Both the position numbers and the translations under genes were made by a program. From a bacterium (lineage in GTDB: Bacteria > Patescibacteriota > Minisyncoccia > Phycocordibacterales > UBA9973): a DNA stretch of 64,000 nt. The notes under the pieces were generated by a model. It saw only the letters and a program-made list of their open reading frames with translations. It was not told where the DNA came from and searched no databases. The stretch spans positions 140,620-204,619 of the forward strand of contig JBAWZD010000002.1 in the NCBI GenBank assembly GCA_037143195.1, written 5' to 3'. This document shows, piece by piece, positions 24,805 to 29,502 of the stretch (its first letter is position 1; every line of letters starts with the position of its first letter).

Positions 24805-25096
24805 AGAATGTGTGGGAGCGAACTCCGTAATGTATAAGCTTCTTGAAAATCGCAGAGTCGAGTGACTCGCGAAACAAAGTGATGTCTAAAAGTGCACATT
24901 TAAAAGATACGTTCCCTTATCAATTTTTGGAGTATTGATAATCAACCAGAGAATATGACTTCGATGAGCGTCGTCAGTTAGATAAATCCTTGACCTCTTA
25001 AGTCTATACCTCTATTTGACAAATAGATAGAACAATTGTTTTATGACACAGTAATCGGTTTACACCTAATAAAAAATAAACGAGCAAAACGTGCGC

Positions 25097-25666
25097 TCAT
25101 TTTTGTAATTCCTCGTTAAAAGTTTCGACAAACCATCGCTTTATATTGTCTATCGTGTCTGGGATTTTTTTACTGTCTTTTGTAGATAAAAGAATTACTG
25201 GCGCTTTCATGCTTTGAAAATCTTTTACCCCAAGTATCAATCTCCCGTCGGGGAGTGCGGTACTCTCATAGTTATCCTTTTTGAAACCAGCTAATGCCTC
25301 TTGAACCGATTGTATAAGTACAACTGGGTTTGGTATGTACTTCTCAAAATAGAGGCTGATTCCAGCGCAACCTCCTTTTCTGAGAGAATCCTTTGCTGAA
25401 GTTAAAAATCGAAAAGTAAATCGGTAACCCGTATCATACTTAGTTATATCTAAATAATTTCCACTACCTAAATCAATCTGTGATTTTATTTTTTCGTCGA
25501 CACTGTCTATGTCGGACGTGGGCAAATTTTTACTACTCTCTTGGAACCCTCCTCCACTAAAATTTGAGGCAAAATAAGACAACTGTTTTGGGTTCGCCTC
25601 GTTGTTCTCAATTTGGCGTACCGGTATTTGAAAATGCTGGTTTTCTTGAGATTCTTTCATATTCAA
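25097..25666 (-). CDS. hypothetical protein (189 aa), AT-rich island
   Basis: ORF in low-GC segment. Confidence 0.45.
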   Translation of the reverse strand: MNMKESQENQHFQIPVRQIENNEANPKQLSYFASNFSGGGFQESSKNLPTSDIDSVDEKIKSQIDLGSGNYLDITKYDTGYRFTFRFLTSAKDSLRKGGCAGISLYFEKYIPNPVVLIQSVQEALAGFKKDNYESTALPDGRLILGVKDFQSMKAPVILLSTKDSKKIPDTIDNIKRWFVETFNEELQK

Positions 25667-25835
25667 TATCTTACCTTAAAAAGACCGCGCTTAGCTACTC
25701 AGGCTTGCCAATAAAAAATATTTACAGCGGGGAAGATTATGTGTTTCTCGAACTTATTAAAATCTACCATAGCGTTAAACTGGTAAAGCCAATACTTGAA
25801 TCAGCATTAAACAGGTTAATAATAACACGCACTGC

Positions 25836-26360
25836 CTAATTCAGCTTTCCAACTATTAAATTATAAAGCGCAATAAATTCATCGTCTGCACCATCAAACC
25901 ATGTCATTCGCAAATCAGCATAAGTAAGGCTTGGATAGTGCTTTTCAGCTACTCCCTTGCCCCCTAAATGCCCTCGGATTACAGGGTCGGCATAATCCTT
26001 GCAAAGATTTTTTGCGTGGTCAAAATCGCCATAGGCAAGTACTGCCCCAGGTACTAGTCTTATTAATGCTGTTGGGTGGATGTAATTTTCAAGCAGCCTT
26101 TTCTTTGATATTAAAAAATCTGTGCCGGCAATTAATCCGTAATTCGTTAGGTTCGTAAGGTTATCTGAAACTGATCCTGCGTTTGGCTTATCGCTATCAA
26201 GAAATATAAGGTATGGTTTTGCAAGCTTGGTAAACAAATCAAGGTTTACCCAGTGTTTTACGCCACCACAACCACCAATCGGTATGATGTTAATATTTAG
26301 TTCCTCAAAAGTATGTGGAATATCGCCATTGGCTTTATAAATGGCTGCATTGTGGTGCAT
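25836..26360 (-). CDS. hypothetical protein; weak resemblance to Toprim/DUF4276 (RloB/OLD-type) nuclease domain
   Basis: NIIPIGGCGGVKHW and IFLDSDKPNAG (DxD-like) motifs; assignment from memory only. Confidence 0.35.
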   Translation of the reverse strand: MHHNAAIYKANGDIPHTFEELNINIIPIGGCGGVKHWVNLDLFTKLAKPYLIFLDSDKPNAGSVSDNLTNLTNYGLIAGTDFLISKKRLLENYIHPTALIRLVPGAVLAYGDFDHAKNLCKDYADPVIRGHLGGKGVAEKHYPSLTYADLRMTWFDGADDEFIALYNLIVGKLN

Positions 26361-26464
26361 AGCTGTTGCATCGTCGCGCAGTGCATACGAAGCGCAGACC
26401 TTGCTGGCGTTCCCGTGAGTTAGTACCTTCGCTGTGGCAAGTCCAAACTAAGCTATTCAAACTA

Positions 26465-26644
26465 ATGACTGAAAAGGAAATAATACAAATAGAGAATGAG
26501 ATTTTTACAAAACTGGTTATTGATACATTGAAACAGCAACGCACTGATGGCGTTGCAATAAAAGATTACTTACTTGATAGGTATGAGATAGATCGGCTTA
26601 CAAAAGAAAAACTCAAACAAATATTGAGTGAACAAAGAAAATGA
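26465..26644 (+). CDS. hypothetical small protein (59 aa)
   Basis: MTEKEIIQIENEIF...; only plus-strand ORF in island. Confidence 0.3.
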   Translation: MTEKEIIQIENEIFTKLVIDTLKQQRTDGVAIKDYLLDRYEIDRLTKEKLKQILSEQRK

Positions 26645-26737
26645 TTTTGGTTTTTTTCTTAAAAAGAAAAGGAACAGACGGGTATGCTCCTTTTCTGTTC
26701 CTTAATATGAATTATAGCTTCACTACTGCATCAGGGG

Positions 26738-26992: not shown

Positions 26993-27001
26993 ACAATAAC
27001 A

Positions 27002-27397
27002 TTAAAAAGGAATATTGGCAAGACTTAAATAAATGACTGAAATAGAATTGAGGTTGCGTATTCGATTTAGGTTGCGTTGCCAATCGGGGTGATTTCTGAA
27101 ATAGACAGGATTATAGCTGAATTTGATTTTTATCTCATCACCGCCGATTGTTATTCGGTCGGTGATTTGCTCGGCGATTTCGCGTTTAGCGAAATCGCCG
27201 AGCGTATTCCATCTATCATATAGATTCTGTGCTTCATTTATTATCACATCAGAATTCATATACTCTATCTTCACAAAATCTATCTCAGCTTGCAGTGCGG
27301 GGATTGTATTCTGCTTTGGATATGGATAAAAGAGACATTGTGCTACAAGTGTTTGCCGAACTCTATATTGAGAATGGCGAACTAAAATACAAAGCAA
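27002..27397 (-). CDS. hypothetical protein (131 aa)
   Basis: ORF in island. Confidence 0.35.
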   Translation of the reverse strand: MLCILVRHSQYRVRQTLVAQCLFYPYPKQNTIPALQAEIDFVKIEYMNSDVIINEAQNLYDRWNTLGDFAKREIAEQITDRITIGGDEIKIKFSYNPVYFRNHPDWQRNLNRIRNLNSISVIYLSLANIPF

Positions 27398-27546
27398 CAG
27401 AAGCGTATCAAGCTTTGTTGATGCGTTTTGAAGCCTCTATTTCTTTGTCTTGCGGGCCACTCGGGATTCAAACTTTCAGAATCAAGCACCGTAAGGGTTT
27501 CTTGAAAAATTTCGACGAGCTAGTTTGATGCACTCGGGTCTAGATC

Positions 27547-28449
27547 TTATACAGGTTTATCTTTATTTTTTCTGTCACGAAGTACAGTTTCAAGGAGCGC
27601 AAGTCGCTTTGTCAGCATATCTCGCAATTCGTCTACTCGTTCCTGCTGAGTTTTTCCGGTCAAAAAAGAAAAGCGCCTATTATTTAAATCTAGCTTTGCT
27701 TTTTTAATTACAGCATTAAAAAAATCTTGCGTATTCCCGCTCTCAGGATCTTCCACTCGTCTGTCCTGTATTGTCTGCAATAAAGAATTGGTTTTTATTG
27801 AAAGCTGCTCCTCGGTTCTTTCGTCAGCTGGTCGATCATAATTGTATTTATGCTGATGAATAAGAACTACTCGTCTTTGTACCGGATCAATAAAGCCCGG
27901 ATGATCTAATAAAAAAATAATTTTATCTTTAAATTTGTTAGTTCTCTCTCTTTTTGAAAAAGTGAAATTGGTATATTTTTCTAAACCATCTTTTTTAAAA
28001 TTTCTAAAAGCTTCGCCATAATCAAAATGAGCGAATGTATCTTTGTCGGCAGATATATTATTCTGCTTCGGAGAACTATCTATATCCCAACCATCAAGAG
28101 TATGATCCCAATCACCGAAGAGGTATTTTAAAATAAATATTTCAGCCTCTGCTTCTCTTTCTTTTGATTTTTCGGAATTTCCTTTGAAATTATCTCGAGA
28201 ATAATATTTTCCGTCTTTTTCGATTATATCTGAACTATGAAGGTTTCCTTTTACGATCATTGAAACAAAACGCTCTACCTCGATGTTCTGTCTCCGCTTA
28301 CTTTCTGGTCGAATTTCTTTTTCATAATATGTATGTCCATCTTCATCTTGAAAGATTCCTAACTCATTTGTTGGGTTAAGTTTAATGTTGGCTTCCACTG
28401 GCGAGCTTTTCATTACATCTATTTTGTTTGGGTTAAAACCTTCGTTCAT
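27547..28449 (-). CDS. hypothetical protein (300 aa)
   Basis: ORF in island; 4-7 nt from upstream gene. Confidence 0.45.
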   Translation of the reverse strand: MNEGFNPNKIDVMKSSPVEANIKLNPTNELGIFQDEDGHTYYEKEIRPESKRRQNIEVERFVSMIVKGNLHSSDIIEKDGKYYSRDNFKGNSEKSKEREAEAEIFILKYLFGDWDHTLDGWDIDSSPKQNNISADKDTFAHFDYGEAFRNFKKDGLEKYTNFTFSKRERTNKFKDKIIFLLDHPGFIDPVQRRVVLIHQHKYNYDRPADERTEEQLSIKTNSLLQTIQDRRVEDPESGNTQDFFNAVIKKAKLDLNNRRFSFLTGKTQQERVDELRDMLTKRLALLETVLRDRKNKDKPV

Positions 28450-28455
28450 AAGTAC

Positions 28456-29358
28456 TTAATTTGAAATGCTTGGGTCTAATTGTTCTAATTCATAAAAAGA
28501 AGAATATCCAAGTTCTTTAATATTTTTTTCTAAAAAAGAAAAGTCGCCTGTGAAATATGGTTTTCCAAAGTTATCTATAAAAACCGTATCCTCGAACTTT
28601 TTTTGATCCCAATGACTGCCCGAGATAAGGTTTTTATATGTTGAGCAAGATCCAACTATTTCAGAAACAAGCTTAGACAACTGCTCACGTTCTCGCTGGT
28701 AAGATGCTGATTGAATACGCTCAAGTTCGTCAGGTTTCAGATTTAAATAGACGTCTCTCCACTTCTCGTTCGTAATGCAGGTATCCTGAACAAGACCCTG
28801 AGCCAGTCGTTCTGTAATCGCTTCATCTAACCACAAGAGATTAGTTTTTTCATGATGGCTCGATCCATGAATAGCAAAACCTTTTCTTCCAGCATTTAGT
28901 ATTTCTTTTGAGGCAAGCTCGTGCATTAGCTCGTGAGATACTATTTTTAGCAGTTGCGCTTTAGTAAAAGCAGGACCCTTTTCAGTATCTGTCGGATTTA
29001 TAAGAATTCGTATTCTATCAAGACCATGAATACCAATACCCTGTTCATAACCCCTAACAATCTGTTCCGATTGATCGTACTCGGGATGGTCGTCCTCGAG
29101 GCGATACCGCATATTACTCAGATATTCCAAAACTTGCTCTCTGTCTAATATTAGGATTTTTTCATTTGCTTTTGCTATGGAATCCGCAAGATCAGCCTCT
29201 CGGAGTATTAGAGATGCTTCGCTTCTGCCATACCTGATTCCTTCCGTGATATCGTTCAGAAGACCTCCCATGCTTGGCAAGCGTTCAAGGTAACTTCTAT
29301 CGAGAAGCATTTTATCTATACCCGTATTGATTTCTTGATTGAGCTTGTATTGTTCCAT
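28456..29358 (-). CDS. HExxH zinc-metallopeptidase-like protein (ImmA/IrrE-like by motif context)
   Basis: KIVSHELMHELASKEIL ... EAITERLA; start at MEQYKLNQE. Confidence 0.45.
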   Translation of the reverse strand: MEQYKLNQEINTGIDKMLLDRSYLERLPSMGGLLNDITEGIRYGRSEASLILREADLADSIAKANEKILILDREQVLEYLSNMRYRLEDDHPEYDQSEQIVRGYEQGIGIHGLDRIRILINPTDTEKGPAFTKAQLLKIVSHELMHELASKEILNAGRKGFAIHGSSHHEKTNLLWLDEAITERLAQGLVQDTCITNEKWRDVYLNLKPDELERIQSASYQREREQLSKLVSEIVGSCSTYKNLISGSHWDQKKFEDTVFIDNFGKPYFTGDFSFLEKNIKELGYSSFYELEQLDPSISN

Positions 29359-29502
29359 TTTGGTTGCTCGGCAAACTCTCACTTCTGATTTAGTCTCTTC
29401 CTGTAAGTTATTTTAACTTACATATCAAAAATTAGGTAATCGGGTATCCGGGTCGCCCCACCGCCCTAAGCTAGCGGGTCTGTCGATAACAGATATTTAC
29501 TG

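Follow-up and report, generated by a model that had tools for sequence, protein, structure and literature searches.

The AT-rich block of small genes beside tRNA-Ser(GCU) in the window (the whole 64-kb stretch of DNA analysed) raises the question of what it is: a defence, abortive-infection or toxin module, as the initial annotation considered possible, or the debris of mobile elements. Homology breakpoints against a related lineage place the island at 25110-29501 (4,392 bp). It holds seven ORFs, six of them on the minus strand as described earlier, and these correspond to seven NCBI hypothetical proteins (WCG55_03095-03130).

Table 1. Features of the island and of its surroundings (positions are those of the window).
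Feature	Position	Strand	Description
Second Ser-type tRNA	22103-22190	-	has GAGATTCGAACTC in common with tRNA-Ser(GCU)
Displaced ancestral sequence	25078-25109	-	17-mer ATTACAAAAATGAGCGC (25109-25093); exact 17-nt match to L008 9167-9183
p1	25097-25666	-	189-aa ORF (186-187 aa from ATG)
X-prime arm	25684-25726	-	distal direct-repeat copy; joined to LSR2 part B
LSR2 part B	25727-25839	+	last ~40 codons of an LSR2-type gene (GEDYVFLELIKIYHSVKLVKP...)
p2	25836-26378	-	OLD-family nuclease 3' fragment; ORF 25836-26360 (174 aa), homology up to 26378
p3 block	26376-26644	+	ORF 26465-26644 (59 aa); boundary 26376 abuts the OLD fragment
Hairpin	26662-26699		inverted repeat I11; 18-nt arms, 83% complementary, 2-nt gap; between convergent p3 and p4
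p4	26738-26992	-	small ORF, 76-84 aa (ORF list)
LSR1 3' fragment	27069-27312	-	last ~80 codons of a comM-targeting LSR; holds the annotated 'gene' p5 (27002-27259/27397)
LSR2 part A	27316-27455	+	residues just ahead of the last 40 codons; 5'-truncated; broken after ...SLSCG
tRNA'-like half-site	27452-27475	-	putative, ~24 nt; plus strand GCGG GCCACTCGGGAT TCAAAC; adjoins the broken end of LSR2 part A
p6	27547-28449	-	300 aa, atypical protein-kinase-like fold
p7	28456-29382	-	orphan HExxH protein; likely start ATG 29358; 300 aa; MEI8130473.1; appears full length
X arm	29460-29501	-	first 42 nt of the island; missing after the tRNA in relatives
tRNA-Ser(GCU)	29502-29589	-	ARAGORN; Rfam 46 bits; 88 nt identical in relative L008

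Limits, composition and site of the island

In ten contigs of the related lineage, the gene order is Ice_binding/sortase, tRNA-Ser(GCU), 529 bp, PG_binding, Transgly_assoc and Big_12, and the 529 bp between the tRNA and the next gene are unrelated to the island. It should be noted that this absence counts as one comparison, with a single related lineage (GROS21) whose contigs are near-identical to each other. The flanks of the window share 77-83% DNA identity with that lineage, whereas the tRNA is identical. BLAST homology stops at 29502, the last tRNA base, and resumes at 25071. On the proximal side, the island begins at the base next to the tRNA-Ser(GCU) 3' end and so includes the 119-bp spacer; it had first been described as ending 120 bp from the tRNA. 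At the other end, 24805-25109 is ancestral intergenic DNA common to relatives. The 17-mer ATTACAAAAATGAGCGC, which in relatives stands directly after the tRNA, is found in the window at the far end of the island, followed by a terminator-like hairpin at 25102-25078. The last three codons and the stop of p1 lie in this ancestral flank, which means that the junction determines where the gene ends. At the distal edge, 25110, neither an att half-site nor a copy of the tRNA end could be recognised.

The drop in GC content first placed at 24880-29450 is real, with its left limit moved to 25110. The GC content of 25110-29501 is 0.3775, compared to a mean of 0.4637 (sd 0.0138, minimum 0.413) for 1,017 non-overlapping windows of equal length; the island thus lies more than 6 sd under the rest of the window, and the lowest-GC window in the full 64 kb begins at 24801. 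The seven island ORFs have a GC3 of 0.22-0.38 versus 0.38-0.45 in ten flanking genes. Horizontal acquisition of 25110-29501, as originally suggested, is well supported, because the island is absent at the related-lineage locus, has an atypical composition and includes remnants of mobile elements with 92-99% identity to DNA from other genomic contexts.

Recombinase gene fragments and their junctions

The initial annotation had reported no integrase and no flanking direct repeat. We identified three degraded fragments from two large serine recombinase (LSR) genes within the island. The LSR1 fragment demonstrates 99.2% identity to L006 over 244 bp and 74% to L007, and the LSR1 element ends at 27069. 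The LSR1-homologous gene ends against a truncated comM in L006, L007, L022, L023 and L025 (Mg_chelatase, E 9e-76). Longer LSR1 homologs match the phrog_95 integrase (E 1.6e-7, profile positions 465-565 of 651), and in L022 the gene is complete (8882-10381), with Resolvase and Recombinase domains. The missing domains suggest that p5 is a truncated pseudogene fragment that has lost its function.

The LSR2 gene is represented by two separate pieces. Part A matches L022 7002-6887 with 80% DNA identity and, by tblastx, L022 7059-6862 with 56% over 66 aa; the corresponding ORF of L022 (6754-8511) has both Resolvase and Recombinase domains. Part B is detached from part A and stands ahead of it on the plus strand. 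L022 has three copies of this piece, 84-88% identical to it in DNA and 50-52% in amino acids, and one of these copies is the true LSR2 3' end. Segments 27316-27431 and 25727-25770 match the L022 gene on opposite sides of one point, L022 6866. The junction proposed at 27455 presupposes that the natural full-length LSR2 C-terminus would not read ...SLSCGPLGIQTF....

A degenerate direct repeat of 50 nt links 29508-29460, comprising the X arm and the last 7 tRNA nucleotides, to 25733-25684, with 37/50 positions matching. Its score of 33 compares to a mean of 22 and a maximum of 30 in Markov shuffles, none of which (0/200) reach it. The repeat is internal to the island, its distal copy lying away from the distal edge. 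Being missing from relatives, the X arm could be either host DNA or element DNA.

The sequence T/GCGG is common to four sites, namely X/tRNA-Ser, X'/B, A/tRNA'-like and A/B, the last of which is intact in L022. The spacing from GCGG to TCGAAC is 12 nt on the tRNA sides and 17 nt on the B sides: on its plus strand, tRNA-Ser(GCU) presents an attB-type right half-site (GCGG + 12 nt + TCGAAC), and part B presents an attP-type right half-site (GCGG + 17 nt + TCGAAC). An offset of 5 bp between attB and attP half-sites is reportedly a known LSR pattern. In this four-way junction comparison, 27452-27475 also has 12 nt between GCGG and the T-loop complement, as in tRNA-Ser, and judging from its sequence it may be a tRNA 3'-end-like half-site. 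It is undetected by Rfam and ARAGORN, its ~24 nt being too short for both. The LSR2-type recombinase seems to target tRNA 3' ends; searches including IMG/VR with the L022 LSR2 and with the part-B DNA motif found no LSR2 relatives adjoining a tRNA gene. Both tRNA genes reported at the outset, tRNA-Ser(GCU) and the second Ser-type tRNA with the common GAGATTCGAACTC, were confirmed.

Genes carried by the island

The ORF p2, in which weak Toprim-like motifs had been noticed, indeed has a sub-threshold match to OLD-like_TOPRIM (profile positions 28-67 of 67) and its 174 residues are the C-terminal end of an OLD-family nuclease. Proteins of this family (P2 Old, Gabija GajA) combine an AAA_15/AAA_21 ATPase with TOPRIM, and homologs with AAA_15, AAA_21 and OLD TOPRIM share 68-74% identity with p2 over their C-terminal part. 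However, p2 begins after the 'LFLVEGIDD' of these homologs, and there is no UvrD-like partner in the window. In L004, the region matching p2 comes after a 451-aa ATPase. Since no part of the ATPase domain is left and the glutamate of the TOPRIM 'VEG' is missing, p2 is probably a truncated pseudogene of a dead nuclease. Several homologs begin at the same Met as p2, and a stand-alone C-terminal protein is a conceivable alternative. At least two of the seven ORFs initially listed as genes, p2 and p5, thus appear to be truncated pseudogene fragments.

Each of p1 and p4 is alone in its 90% cluster and has no family matches, and p1 has no relative in viral contigs. The p3 gene is a widespread mobile-element gene (90% cluster n=16 from ENA, JGI, NCBI and Logan), and 26376-26608 of its block demonstrates 91.8% identity to L019-L021. 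A 55-kb contig has p3 within an element inserted in comM, in the order comM' - Resolvase fragment - HTH - DUF2726 - AAA_21/DUF4435 - ... - p3 - ArdC/MPTase. The hairpin between p3 and p4 is probably a bidirectional terminator.

The p7 and p6 proteins each align end to end with their homologs, and p6 starts 6 nt after the p7 stop on the same strand; both are full length relative to these homologs and are probably expressed as one unit. The HExxH motif noted earlier in p7 is present as HELMHELA (H142-E-L-x-H146-E-L-A), a form conserved in the two homologs that p7 has, and is accompanied by W176-L-D-E-A-I-T-E-R-L; HExxH and WLDEAITE are invariant in the three known members. Unlike the zincin (HExxH) metallopeptidases (gluzincins with HExxH...E, SprT/Spartan and the ArdC metalloprotease domain), p7 matches no family model and its third zinc ligand is putative; its structural model has a pLDDT of 49 and is unreliable. 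The conserved residues of p6 are K44, E59, K67, D74, S84, D113, D115, H/K/R116 and D143, with the catalytic-type residues kept in 36-39/39 family members, and its best structural matches include the effectors/toxins MavQ, CtkA and HipA. In contrast to the structural group of PI3/4-kinase, actin-fragmin kinase, CtkA and HipA, p6 has no sequence-level similarity to any solved kinase or any Pfam family and lacks a partner like HipB. Its family is distinguished by an N-terminal D-P-x-K-x-S-P motif and by a helical region at the C-terminus. By its fold and its conserved catalytic-type Asp and Lys residues, p6 may be an atypical protein-kinase-like enzyme. No HTH or antitoxin-like partner stands alongside it. 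Homologs of p6 and p7 are not neighbours elsewhere: those of p7 come after an unrelated 274-299-aa protein, and in a Saccharibacteria genome the p6 homolog is a solitary gene surrounded by genes for ribosomal proteins. It is conceivable that p6 or p7 acts as a toxin or an effector.

Origin of the island

We consider it likely that the island is a mosaic left at a tRNA hot spot by LSR-type integrative elements and no longer able to move, which would explain these data. Insertion would have occurred between the 3' end of tRNA-Ser(GCU) and the original terminator of that tRNA. The core, ~25727-27455, would be one element, E1, of a two-integrase type that sits in comM in other genomes, where LSR1 would have put it. 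E1 would be circularly permuted here, as expected after attP x attB integration via a site inside the 3' end of its LSR2 gene; its ends would be parts B and A of LSR2, B joined to X-prime and A to the tRNA-3'-end-like half-site. A later internal deletion of ~3.1 kb would then have removed the catalytic halves of both integrase genes, and the cargo OLD-family nuclease gene would have lost its ATPase domain and TOPRIM glutamate. Conceptual removal of E1 leaves two tandem attB-like sites (tRNA-Ser/X and tRNA'-like/X') with p7-p6 between them, which the simple E1 model leaves unexplained.

Other origins fit these observations less well. A tRNA-adjacent integrase fragment with a PHROG integrase match could also belong to a prophage remnant, but this is very improbable given that no structural, lysis or replication genes were matched in PHROGs, that IMG/VR scans were empty for the LSR1 C-terminal homolog, p3, p1, the L022 LSR2 and the part-B DNA motif, and that the cargo of related intact elements is HTH, ArdC-like and defence-type, with no phage genes. 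It is equally hard to believe that the region is ancestral and was lost by relatives, the 529-bp segment of the GROS21 lineage being a deletion scar. Although that segment carries partial, inverted copies of the tRNA 3' end (CGTCTCCGC...GCGGAGACG, GCGAGATTCGAA), pointing to a past rearrangement at the site, the island is foreign in composition and GC3, its 244 bp of comM-context DNA are 99.2% identical while the flanks are 17-23% divergent from relatives, and the 17-mer of the tRNA terminator is displaced to the far end, as insertion predicts.

An active anti-phage defence, abortive-infection or toxin module made up of the HExxH and Toprim-like proteins and of adjacent gene products is unlikely. 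None of the island ORFs match any of 5,027 PADLOC models at E <= 1, the OLD-family stump has neither the ATPase nor the catalytic glutamate, and p6 and p7 form no conserved pair and have no antitoxin-like gene beside p6. These observations outweigh a site typical of defence islands (tRNA-adjacent, AT-rich, with mobile-element debris), the HipA-like fold of p6 and the descent of p2 from an OLD-family nuclease whose intact relatives in L004 and L022 sit among McrBC and Gabija-like (AAA_15/21 + UvrD) genes. Compatible with the mosaic origin, though only a tentative possibility, is that p7 and p6 form a working cargo module for which the island has been retained, whatever the fate of its other parts; the two could be effectors that are secreted or injected, or a metallopeptidase paired with a kinase toxin. 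The completeness and close spacing of both genes, the conserved residues of the two families and the effector and toxin matches of p6 argue for such a module; however, the pairing is not conserved elsewhere, and the surrounding fragments show that the locus tolerates junk, so the intact ORFs may be recent arrivals.

As a mosaic of this kind, the island resembles classical tRNA-associated islands and CIME-like integrase-less remnants in its tRNA 3'-end insertion, atypical composition, absence from relatives, integrase remnants, degenerate att-like repeats and mosaic cargo. It differs in having LSR remnants, whereas tyrosine integrases dominate tRNA sites, and in a repeat that does not bracket the whole island. 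In SCCmec and SCC-like cassettes, the Ccr large serine recombinases act at the 3' end of rlmH/orfX. They resemble the island in being inserted by LSRs at the very 3' end of a conserved gene, in accreting in tandem, in often surviving as composites that are truncated or lack a recombinase, and in their short degenerate junction repeats. In contrast, the island has a tRNA gene as its target (comM being that of the sister integrase), carries no resistance genes and belongs to an uncultured lineage, and its attP appears to be located within the 3' coding end of the integrase gene itself. The comM (yifB)-inserted elements are related through the LSR1 homologs that end at truncated Mg_chelatase/comM, and through the p3-bearing 55-kb contig, in which a Resolvase fragment adjoins truncated comM. 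In the window, however, LSR1 is reduced to 244 bp, and its end at 27069 lacks the junction with comM; no comM-like sequence adjoins the island, and tblastn gave a single weak match in the window (E 0.002), at 5825-6010, ~20 kb from the island.

With both integrase genes lacking their catalytic halves and the OLD-family gene cut down, the element would therefore be unable to leave its site, and its defence cargo has probably lost its function. The island is of an ordinary kind among genomic islands, consisting mostly of the wreckage of serine-recombinase mobile elements.

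Limits and composition of the island at tRNA-Ser(GCU)

Across ~24.75-29.5 kb of the window, the sliding GC profile falls from ~0.45-0.49 to 0.33-0.41, and the lowest-GC window in the entire 64 kb begins at 24801. The segment 25110-29501 has a GC content of 0.3775 vs. a mean of 0.4637 (sd 0.0138, minimum 0.413) among 1,017 non-overlapping windows of equal length, and GC3 is 0.22-0.38 in all seven of its ORFs (p1-p7, Table) vs. 0.38-0.45 in ten flanking genes. The seven ORFs correspond to the NCBI MAG proteins WCG55_03095 to 03130, and a Logan contig is 100% identical to window positions 22162-32481.

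Contigs of related bacteria were reached via the 90% cluster of the flanking PG_binding protein, one member of which led to ten contigs from the ENA 'GROS21' metagenomes. On both sides of the locus, all ten have the same gene order as the window (P-type ATPase ... Flg_new_2 protein, Ice_binding/sortase, tRNA-Ser(GCU), PG_binding, Transgly_assoc, Big_12, tRNA-Ser(ACU) ... PEPCK), with a flank DNA identity of 77-88%. The 88 nt of tRNA-Ser(GCU) on contig L008 are identical to those of the window, and the 71 nt present on contig L016 match at 100%. Homology between the window and these relatives ends at 29502, the last tRNA base, and restarts at 25071; between these points there are 529 unrelated bp in the relatives (L008-L017) vs. 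4,392 bp in the window. The 17-mer ATTACAAAAATGAGCGC, which in the relatives lies one base after the tRNA and opens the tRNA terminator hairpin, is found in the window at 25109-25093. The homology break and the displaced 17-mer therefore set the island at 25110-29501, and the alignment places it as an insertion between tRNA-Ser(GCU) and that tRNA's own terminator. ORF p1 ends within the ancestral 17-mer, which supplies its last three codons and its stop codon.

These results partly bear out the initial annotation, which had described an AT-rich, acquired island of seven hypothetical genes with a second Ser-type tRNA of common T-arm lying beyond its other end. The drop in composition, the seven ORFs and the second tRNA were all recovered, while the limits of the island had to be redrawn from homology to the relatives. 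The synteny comparison that it had proposed found the island missing at the same locus, with 529 bp instead; since all relatives represent one lineage, this absence is effectively a single comparison.

Table. Coordinates of tRNA genes, ORFs, intact recombinase genes and att-like junctions. Positions are those of the window unless contig L022 is named; a slash within a junction marks the point of joining
Feature	Position	Strand or orientation	Remarks
tRNA-Ser(GCU)	29502-29589	-	ARAGORN, Rfam
Second Ser-type tRNA	22103-22190	-	ARAGORN, Rfam; T-arm common to both Ser tRNAs
p1	25097-25666	-	ORF
p2	25836-26360	-	ORF
p3	26366/26465-26644	+	ORF
p4	26738-26992	-	ORF
p5	27002-27397	-	ORF
p6	27547-28449	-	ORF
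p7	28456-29382	-	ORF
LSR1, full gene	L022 8882-10381	abuts comM'	Resolvase + Recombinase
LSR2, full gene	L022 6754-8511	adjoins LSR1, divergent from LSR1	Resolvase + Recombinase
Junction (i), X / tRNA-Ser	29501/29502	+	T/GCGG
Junction (ii), part A / GCGGGCCACTCGGGATTCAAAC	~27451/27452	+	T/GCGG
Junction (iii), X' / part B	25726/25727	+	T/GCGG
Junction (iv), part A / part B	intact in L022	+	T/GCGG

Several further features of the locus and its surroundings should be mentioned. Around the terminator, the 529-bp segment that stands in place of the island on L008 (9166-9694) has the tRNA 3' end copied in inverted orientation (CGTCTCCGC ... GCGGAGACG), and it includes additional T-arm pieces (GCGAGATTCGAA; CGAATCTCGCAG), which points to older scars of rearrangement or integration at this site in the relatives. 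The second tRNA-Ser (12577-12664 on L008) is conserved in the related lineage and has the anticodon ACU in an anticodon loop TTACTAA; A34 tRNAs are unusual in bacteria, tRNA-Arg apart. The 3' ends of the two Ser tRNAs are nearly identical, and the site downstream of the second is unoccupied in both genomes. Elsewhere, the window contains a tmRNA gene (1437-1845, 110 bits) and tRNA-Ile(UAU) (7321-7395), in surroundings where very large surface proteins abound (FG-GAP, Flg_new_2, Ice_binding + sortase, Big_12).

Recombinase gene remnants and att-like junctions

The initial annotation had reported neither an integrase nor a direct repeat, and on both points it is superseded. The domain search identified no Resolvase or Recombinase domain in the island ORFs; what is left are 3' fragments of two large serine recombinase (LSR) genes, recognized by homology to contigs L006 and L022. 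The fragment of the first gene, LSR1 (27069-27312), is 99.2% identical to L006 over 244 bp and 74% identical to contig L007, and on both contigs the p5-homologous gene ends at a truncated opposite-strand gene of the Mg_chelatase type (comM/yifB, E 9e-76). Two close homologs of p5 were found, both on short contigs, and longer ones match phrog_95 'integrase' (E 1.6e-7, profile positions 465-565 of 651). On L022, which was recovered by a metagenome scan from a source contig of 1.57 Mb, both recombinase genes are complete, and p5 shows 71% amino acid identity to the C-terminus of a Resolvase + Recombinase protein. LSR2 is followed there by an HTH gene, an AAA_15/AAA_21 ATPase and a UvrD-like helicase, the latter two forming a Gabija-like pair.

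The second gene, LSR2, is represented in the island by two plus-strand parts. Part A (27316-27431) has 80% DNA identity to L022 7002-6887, and the translation of 27259-27456 has 56% identity over 66 aa; this is the section of LSR2 just ahead of its last 40 codons. Part B (25727-25848) matches those last 40 codons, as well as two more copies of this stub in L022. The 5' ends of the LSR1 fragment and part A meet at ~27312-27316. By comparison with L022, this meeting point is equivalent to one putative ~3.1-kb deletion (L022 7002 to 10130), which would have taken the catalytic halves of both divergent integrase genes. The WCG55_03115 to 03125 locus tags omit 03120, between p5 and p6, for which no protein is on record; this tag may be an NCBI-annotated pseudogene, fitting the part-A fragment (27229-27528, plus strand).

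The junction between the tRNA end and the island (29508-29460) is repeated in degenerate form at 25733-25684 with 37 matches in 50 positions, a score reached by none of 200 shuffles. The distal copy lies ~600 bp inside the island, and the distal edge at 25110 has no repeat and no att feature; a possible tRNA-end copy at that edge (GTCGAAACT... within p1) was judged to be due to chance. A reading of the 28-nt repeat as a simple attL/attR pair around 25733-29481 was rejected, as the distal copy is joined to the LSR2 gene stub. The proximal and distal arms of the repeat (X and X') each border one of four plus-strand junctions that have T/GCGG in common (Table). The sequence following part A is organised like the 3' end of a tRNA, with a discriminator, a 7-nt acceptor strand, a 5-nt T-stem strand and a T-loop complement; this tRNA'-like sequence differs from tRNA-Ser, extends for only ~24 nt and has no Rfam match. 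Junctions (ii) and (iii) are the products to be expected of recombination between attP (A/B) and attB (X'/tRNA'). TCGAAC/TCAAAC is 12 nt away from GCGG at the two tRNA-type sides and 17 nt away at each of the four B-type sides; LSR sites reportedly have as their hallmark a zinc-ribbon-domain motif that lies 5 bp further outward in attP than in attB half-sites. From the junctions and the 12/17-nt spacing, we therefore infer that 25727-27455 is a single element, E1, which would have integrated through LSR2 at a tRNA-type site.

Next to the island there is no comM-like sequence; the sole weak tblastn match in the window (E 0.002) is located at 5825-6010. The LSR1 attP region of E1 would still be unrecombined at ~27069, which would account for the lack of an LSR1-comM junction in the window.

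Three observations on the recombinase sequences are added here. At the LSR1 element end (27056-27090, minus strand), ACGCAACCT occurs twice, 9 nt apart (GGCAACGCAACCTAAATCGAATACGCAACCTCAATTC), and the second copy runs on into 'CA', as after the same motif at the L006 comM junction; this pair may be part of an unrecombined LSR1 attP. Within the LSR1 fragment, ~100 bp from the element end, there is a perfect 15-nt inverted repeat (27169-27203; GCTCGGCGATTTCGC / GCGAAATCGCCGAGC, 5-nt loop), which is present in L006 and not conserved in L007. Finally, the three copies of the last ~40 codons of LSR2 in L022 (1360-1481, 2984-3105 and 6745-6866) all begin at the same GCGGGGAAG point, and each is followed by an HTH_3 gene and a different cargo, in one case the Gabija-like pair of an AAA_15/21 ATPase and a UvrD helicase. 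This arrangement looks like tandem cassette accretion at a site within the integrase's own 3' end.

Gene content of the island

The acquired nature of the island is supported, its reading as an active defence module is not. PADLOC-DB v2 gave 0 families for all seven ORFs at E <= 1, and searches of Pfam, NCBIfam and PHROGs returned sub-threshold matches only. The one ORF with clear kinship to defence genes, p2, shows 68-74% identity to the C-terminal part of proteins that combine AAA_15, AAA_21 and an OLD-like TOPRIM. Its 174 aa align only to the last ~175 residues of these homologs, beginning just after 'LFLVEGIDD', and its Pfam TOPRIM match is limited to profile positions 28-67 of 67. The TOPRIM DxD region ('FLDSDK') and the C-terminal domain are kept, and in the non-ORF sequence upstream of p2 the 'LFLVEGIDD' of the homologs is replaced by '..YALRDD'. 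On contig L004, the p2-equivalent region comes after a 451-aa ATPase, among McrBC and other ATPase genes, whereas the window DNA upstream of p2 is unrelated and belongs to the p3 block. The start of the alignment and the unrelated upstream DNA thus identify p2 as a stump that lacks both the ATPase and the TOPRIM Glu and is presumably non-functional. Unlike OLD-family nucleases, which are defined by the AAA_15/AAA_21 ATPase and a complete TOPRIM, it has only the DxD region and the C-terminal domain.

The p3 block (26376-26608), which starts where OLD homology ends (26376/26378), is 91.8% identical to three contigs, and the p3 90% cluster has 16 members from four data sources. On a 55-kb contig, a p3-bearing element lies beside a truncated comM in the order comM', Resolvase fragment, HTH, DUF2726, AAA_21/DUF4435 ... 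p3, ArdC-N/MPTase. The in-frame 'KVLTHGNASKV' upstream of p2 was considered as a decayed TOPRIM and dropped, this sequence being part of the p3 block.

A distant p2 homolog (48% identity) in a TamB/Omp85 context on L005 (9880-10001; GCA_031371805.1) is cut at the same point as in the window. It consists of the first ~40 aa of an AAA_15-type ATPase, including Walker A, followed by a stop codon and then 'RDD...', while the window has '...YALRDD...' at 26361-26390. The truncation points are within 3 codons of each other and the TOPRIM Glu is removed in both; the common breakpoint could be due to chance, to selection against an unregulated nuclease or to a recombination hot spot.

Next to the tRNA, p7 and p6 are 6 nt apart and both of full length, and on this sequence evidence they may be a retained unit that is possibly expressed. 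The predicted structure of p6 has a bilobal kinase fold, with Fam20 and CotH among the lower-scoring structural matches. In its family of 39 members, K44 (31 of 33 ungapped), E59 (30/39), D113 (36/39), D115 (38/39) and D143 (39/39) are conserved and occupy beta-3, alpha-C, catalytic-loop and DFG-like positions of the predicted model, as candidates for the catalytic Lys/Glu pair, the catalytic-loop Asp and the metal-binding Asp. Probably, p6 is an ATP-dependent phosphotransferase. The family profile gave coiled-coil noise only against PDB sequences, with no sequence-level link to a solved kinase. The kinase fold is shared with the HipA toxin family, to which p6 does not belong, there being no Pfam match in the 39 members and no HTH gene beside p6. 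Its genomic context was sought with a 4-member alignment, and the single genome locus found is in a Candidatus Saccharibacteria MAG (CAZRTW010000017.1, L018 3105-3956), with no p7-like neighbour. In that genome the homolog is a lone gene on the opposite strand within a ribosomal-protein gene cluster; translations read by eye point to an S8-like gene on one side and pseudouridine-synthase-like and cytidylate-kinase-like genes on the other, and the homolog looks like a stable chromosomal gene.

The HExxH motif of p7 (H142-E143-L-x-H146) is invariant in its 3 known members, and the family profile had 0 matches to PDB sequences at E <= 10. Each of the two known homologs (L002 116-940, L003 1-900) follows a conserved protein of 274-299 aa whose 'VDLGCGG' motif recalls motif I of SAM-dependent methyltransferases and which has no Pfam match. 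No relatives of p1 and p4 were found by 90% clustering and family searches, nor among viral contigs for p1. Scans of IMG/VR were empty for four proteins (p1, p3, a homolog of the LSR1 C-terminus, and LSR2 of L022) and for a DNA pattern of the part-B site, and a phage origin of the island was therefore rejected.

Possible history and relation to known systems

Most likely, the island arose by site-specific integration, once or several times, of LSR-type elements at the 3' end of tRNA-Ser(GCU). Deletions would then have stripped the integrases of their catalytic domains and taken the greater part of the OLD gene, resulting in the present anatomy, and the island would now be fixed and non-mobile, with a dead defence gene, the p7-p6 unit apparently being retained. 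Conceptual removal of E1 leaves tRNA-Ser/X, p7, p6, tRNA'-like/X', p1 and the ancestral terminator, i.e., two tandem attB-like sites. These tandem sites, the absence of X from the relatives and the distal edge without an att feature are unaccounted for by the E1 model. The whole could have been built by serial accretion at tRNA-Ser(GCU), or a pre-assembled block could have been imported from another genome, e.g., by recombination anchored on the tRNA; we rank neither option above the other.

L022 carries three units that each consist of a 40-codon stub, an HTH gene and cargo. A broader reading, which we consider tentative and rather unlikely, is that the LSR2-type enzyme is a large serine integrase targeting the extreme 3' ends of tRNA genes, with attP within the last 40 codons of its own gene. 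It would travel together with an LSR specific for comM, in two-integrase elements able to enter either of two conserved landing sites and to build tandem cassettes. Mageeney et al. (PMC7192596) predicted tRNA genes as targets for only 14 of 297 S-Int elements, and called such targeting by large serine integrases unreported and in need of proof.

The island resembles a classical tRNA-linked genomic island except in having no working integrase and no clear bracketing repeats. It also resembles decayed SCC-like composites, which are likewise LSR-driven, located at the 3' end of a conserved gene and formed by tandem accretion, and it is not a member of any PADLOC system. The island as such is ordinary; its possible wider interest could be the use of a tRNA site by an LSR. 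The sequence provides evidence for a serine integrase with a tRNA 3' end as attB, a rare type that awaits experimental proof and is of value to those seeking tools for genome engineering. Of the seven ORFs recorded as 'hypothetical proteins', two or more are pseudogene fragments, and the annotation has no protein entries for three recombinase fragments. Among the retained genes, p6 belongs to a small family of atypical kinases without a name, with ~60 clusters at 50% identity (one of them from Saccharibacteria), and for the HExxH protein p7, 5.8 billion sequences contain only two known relatives. Small-genome uncultured bacteria thus possess hot spots at tRNA genes in which mobile elements insert and degenerate, with remains of defence genes left behind.
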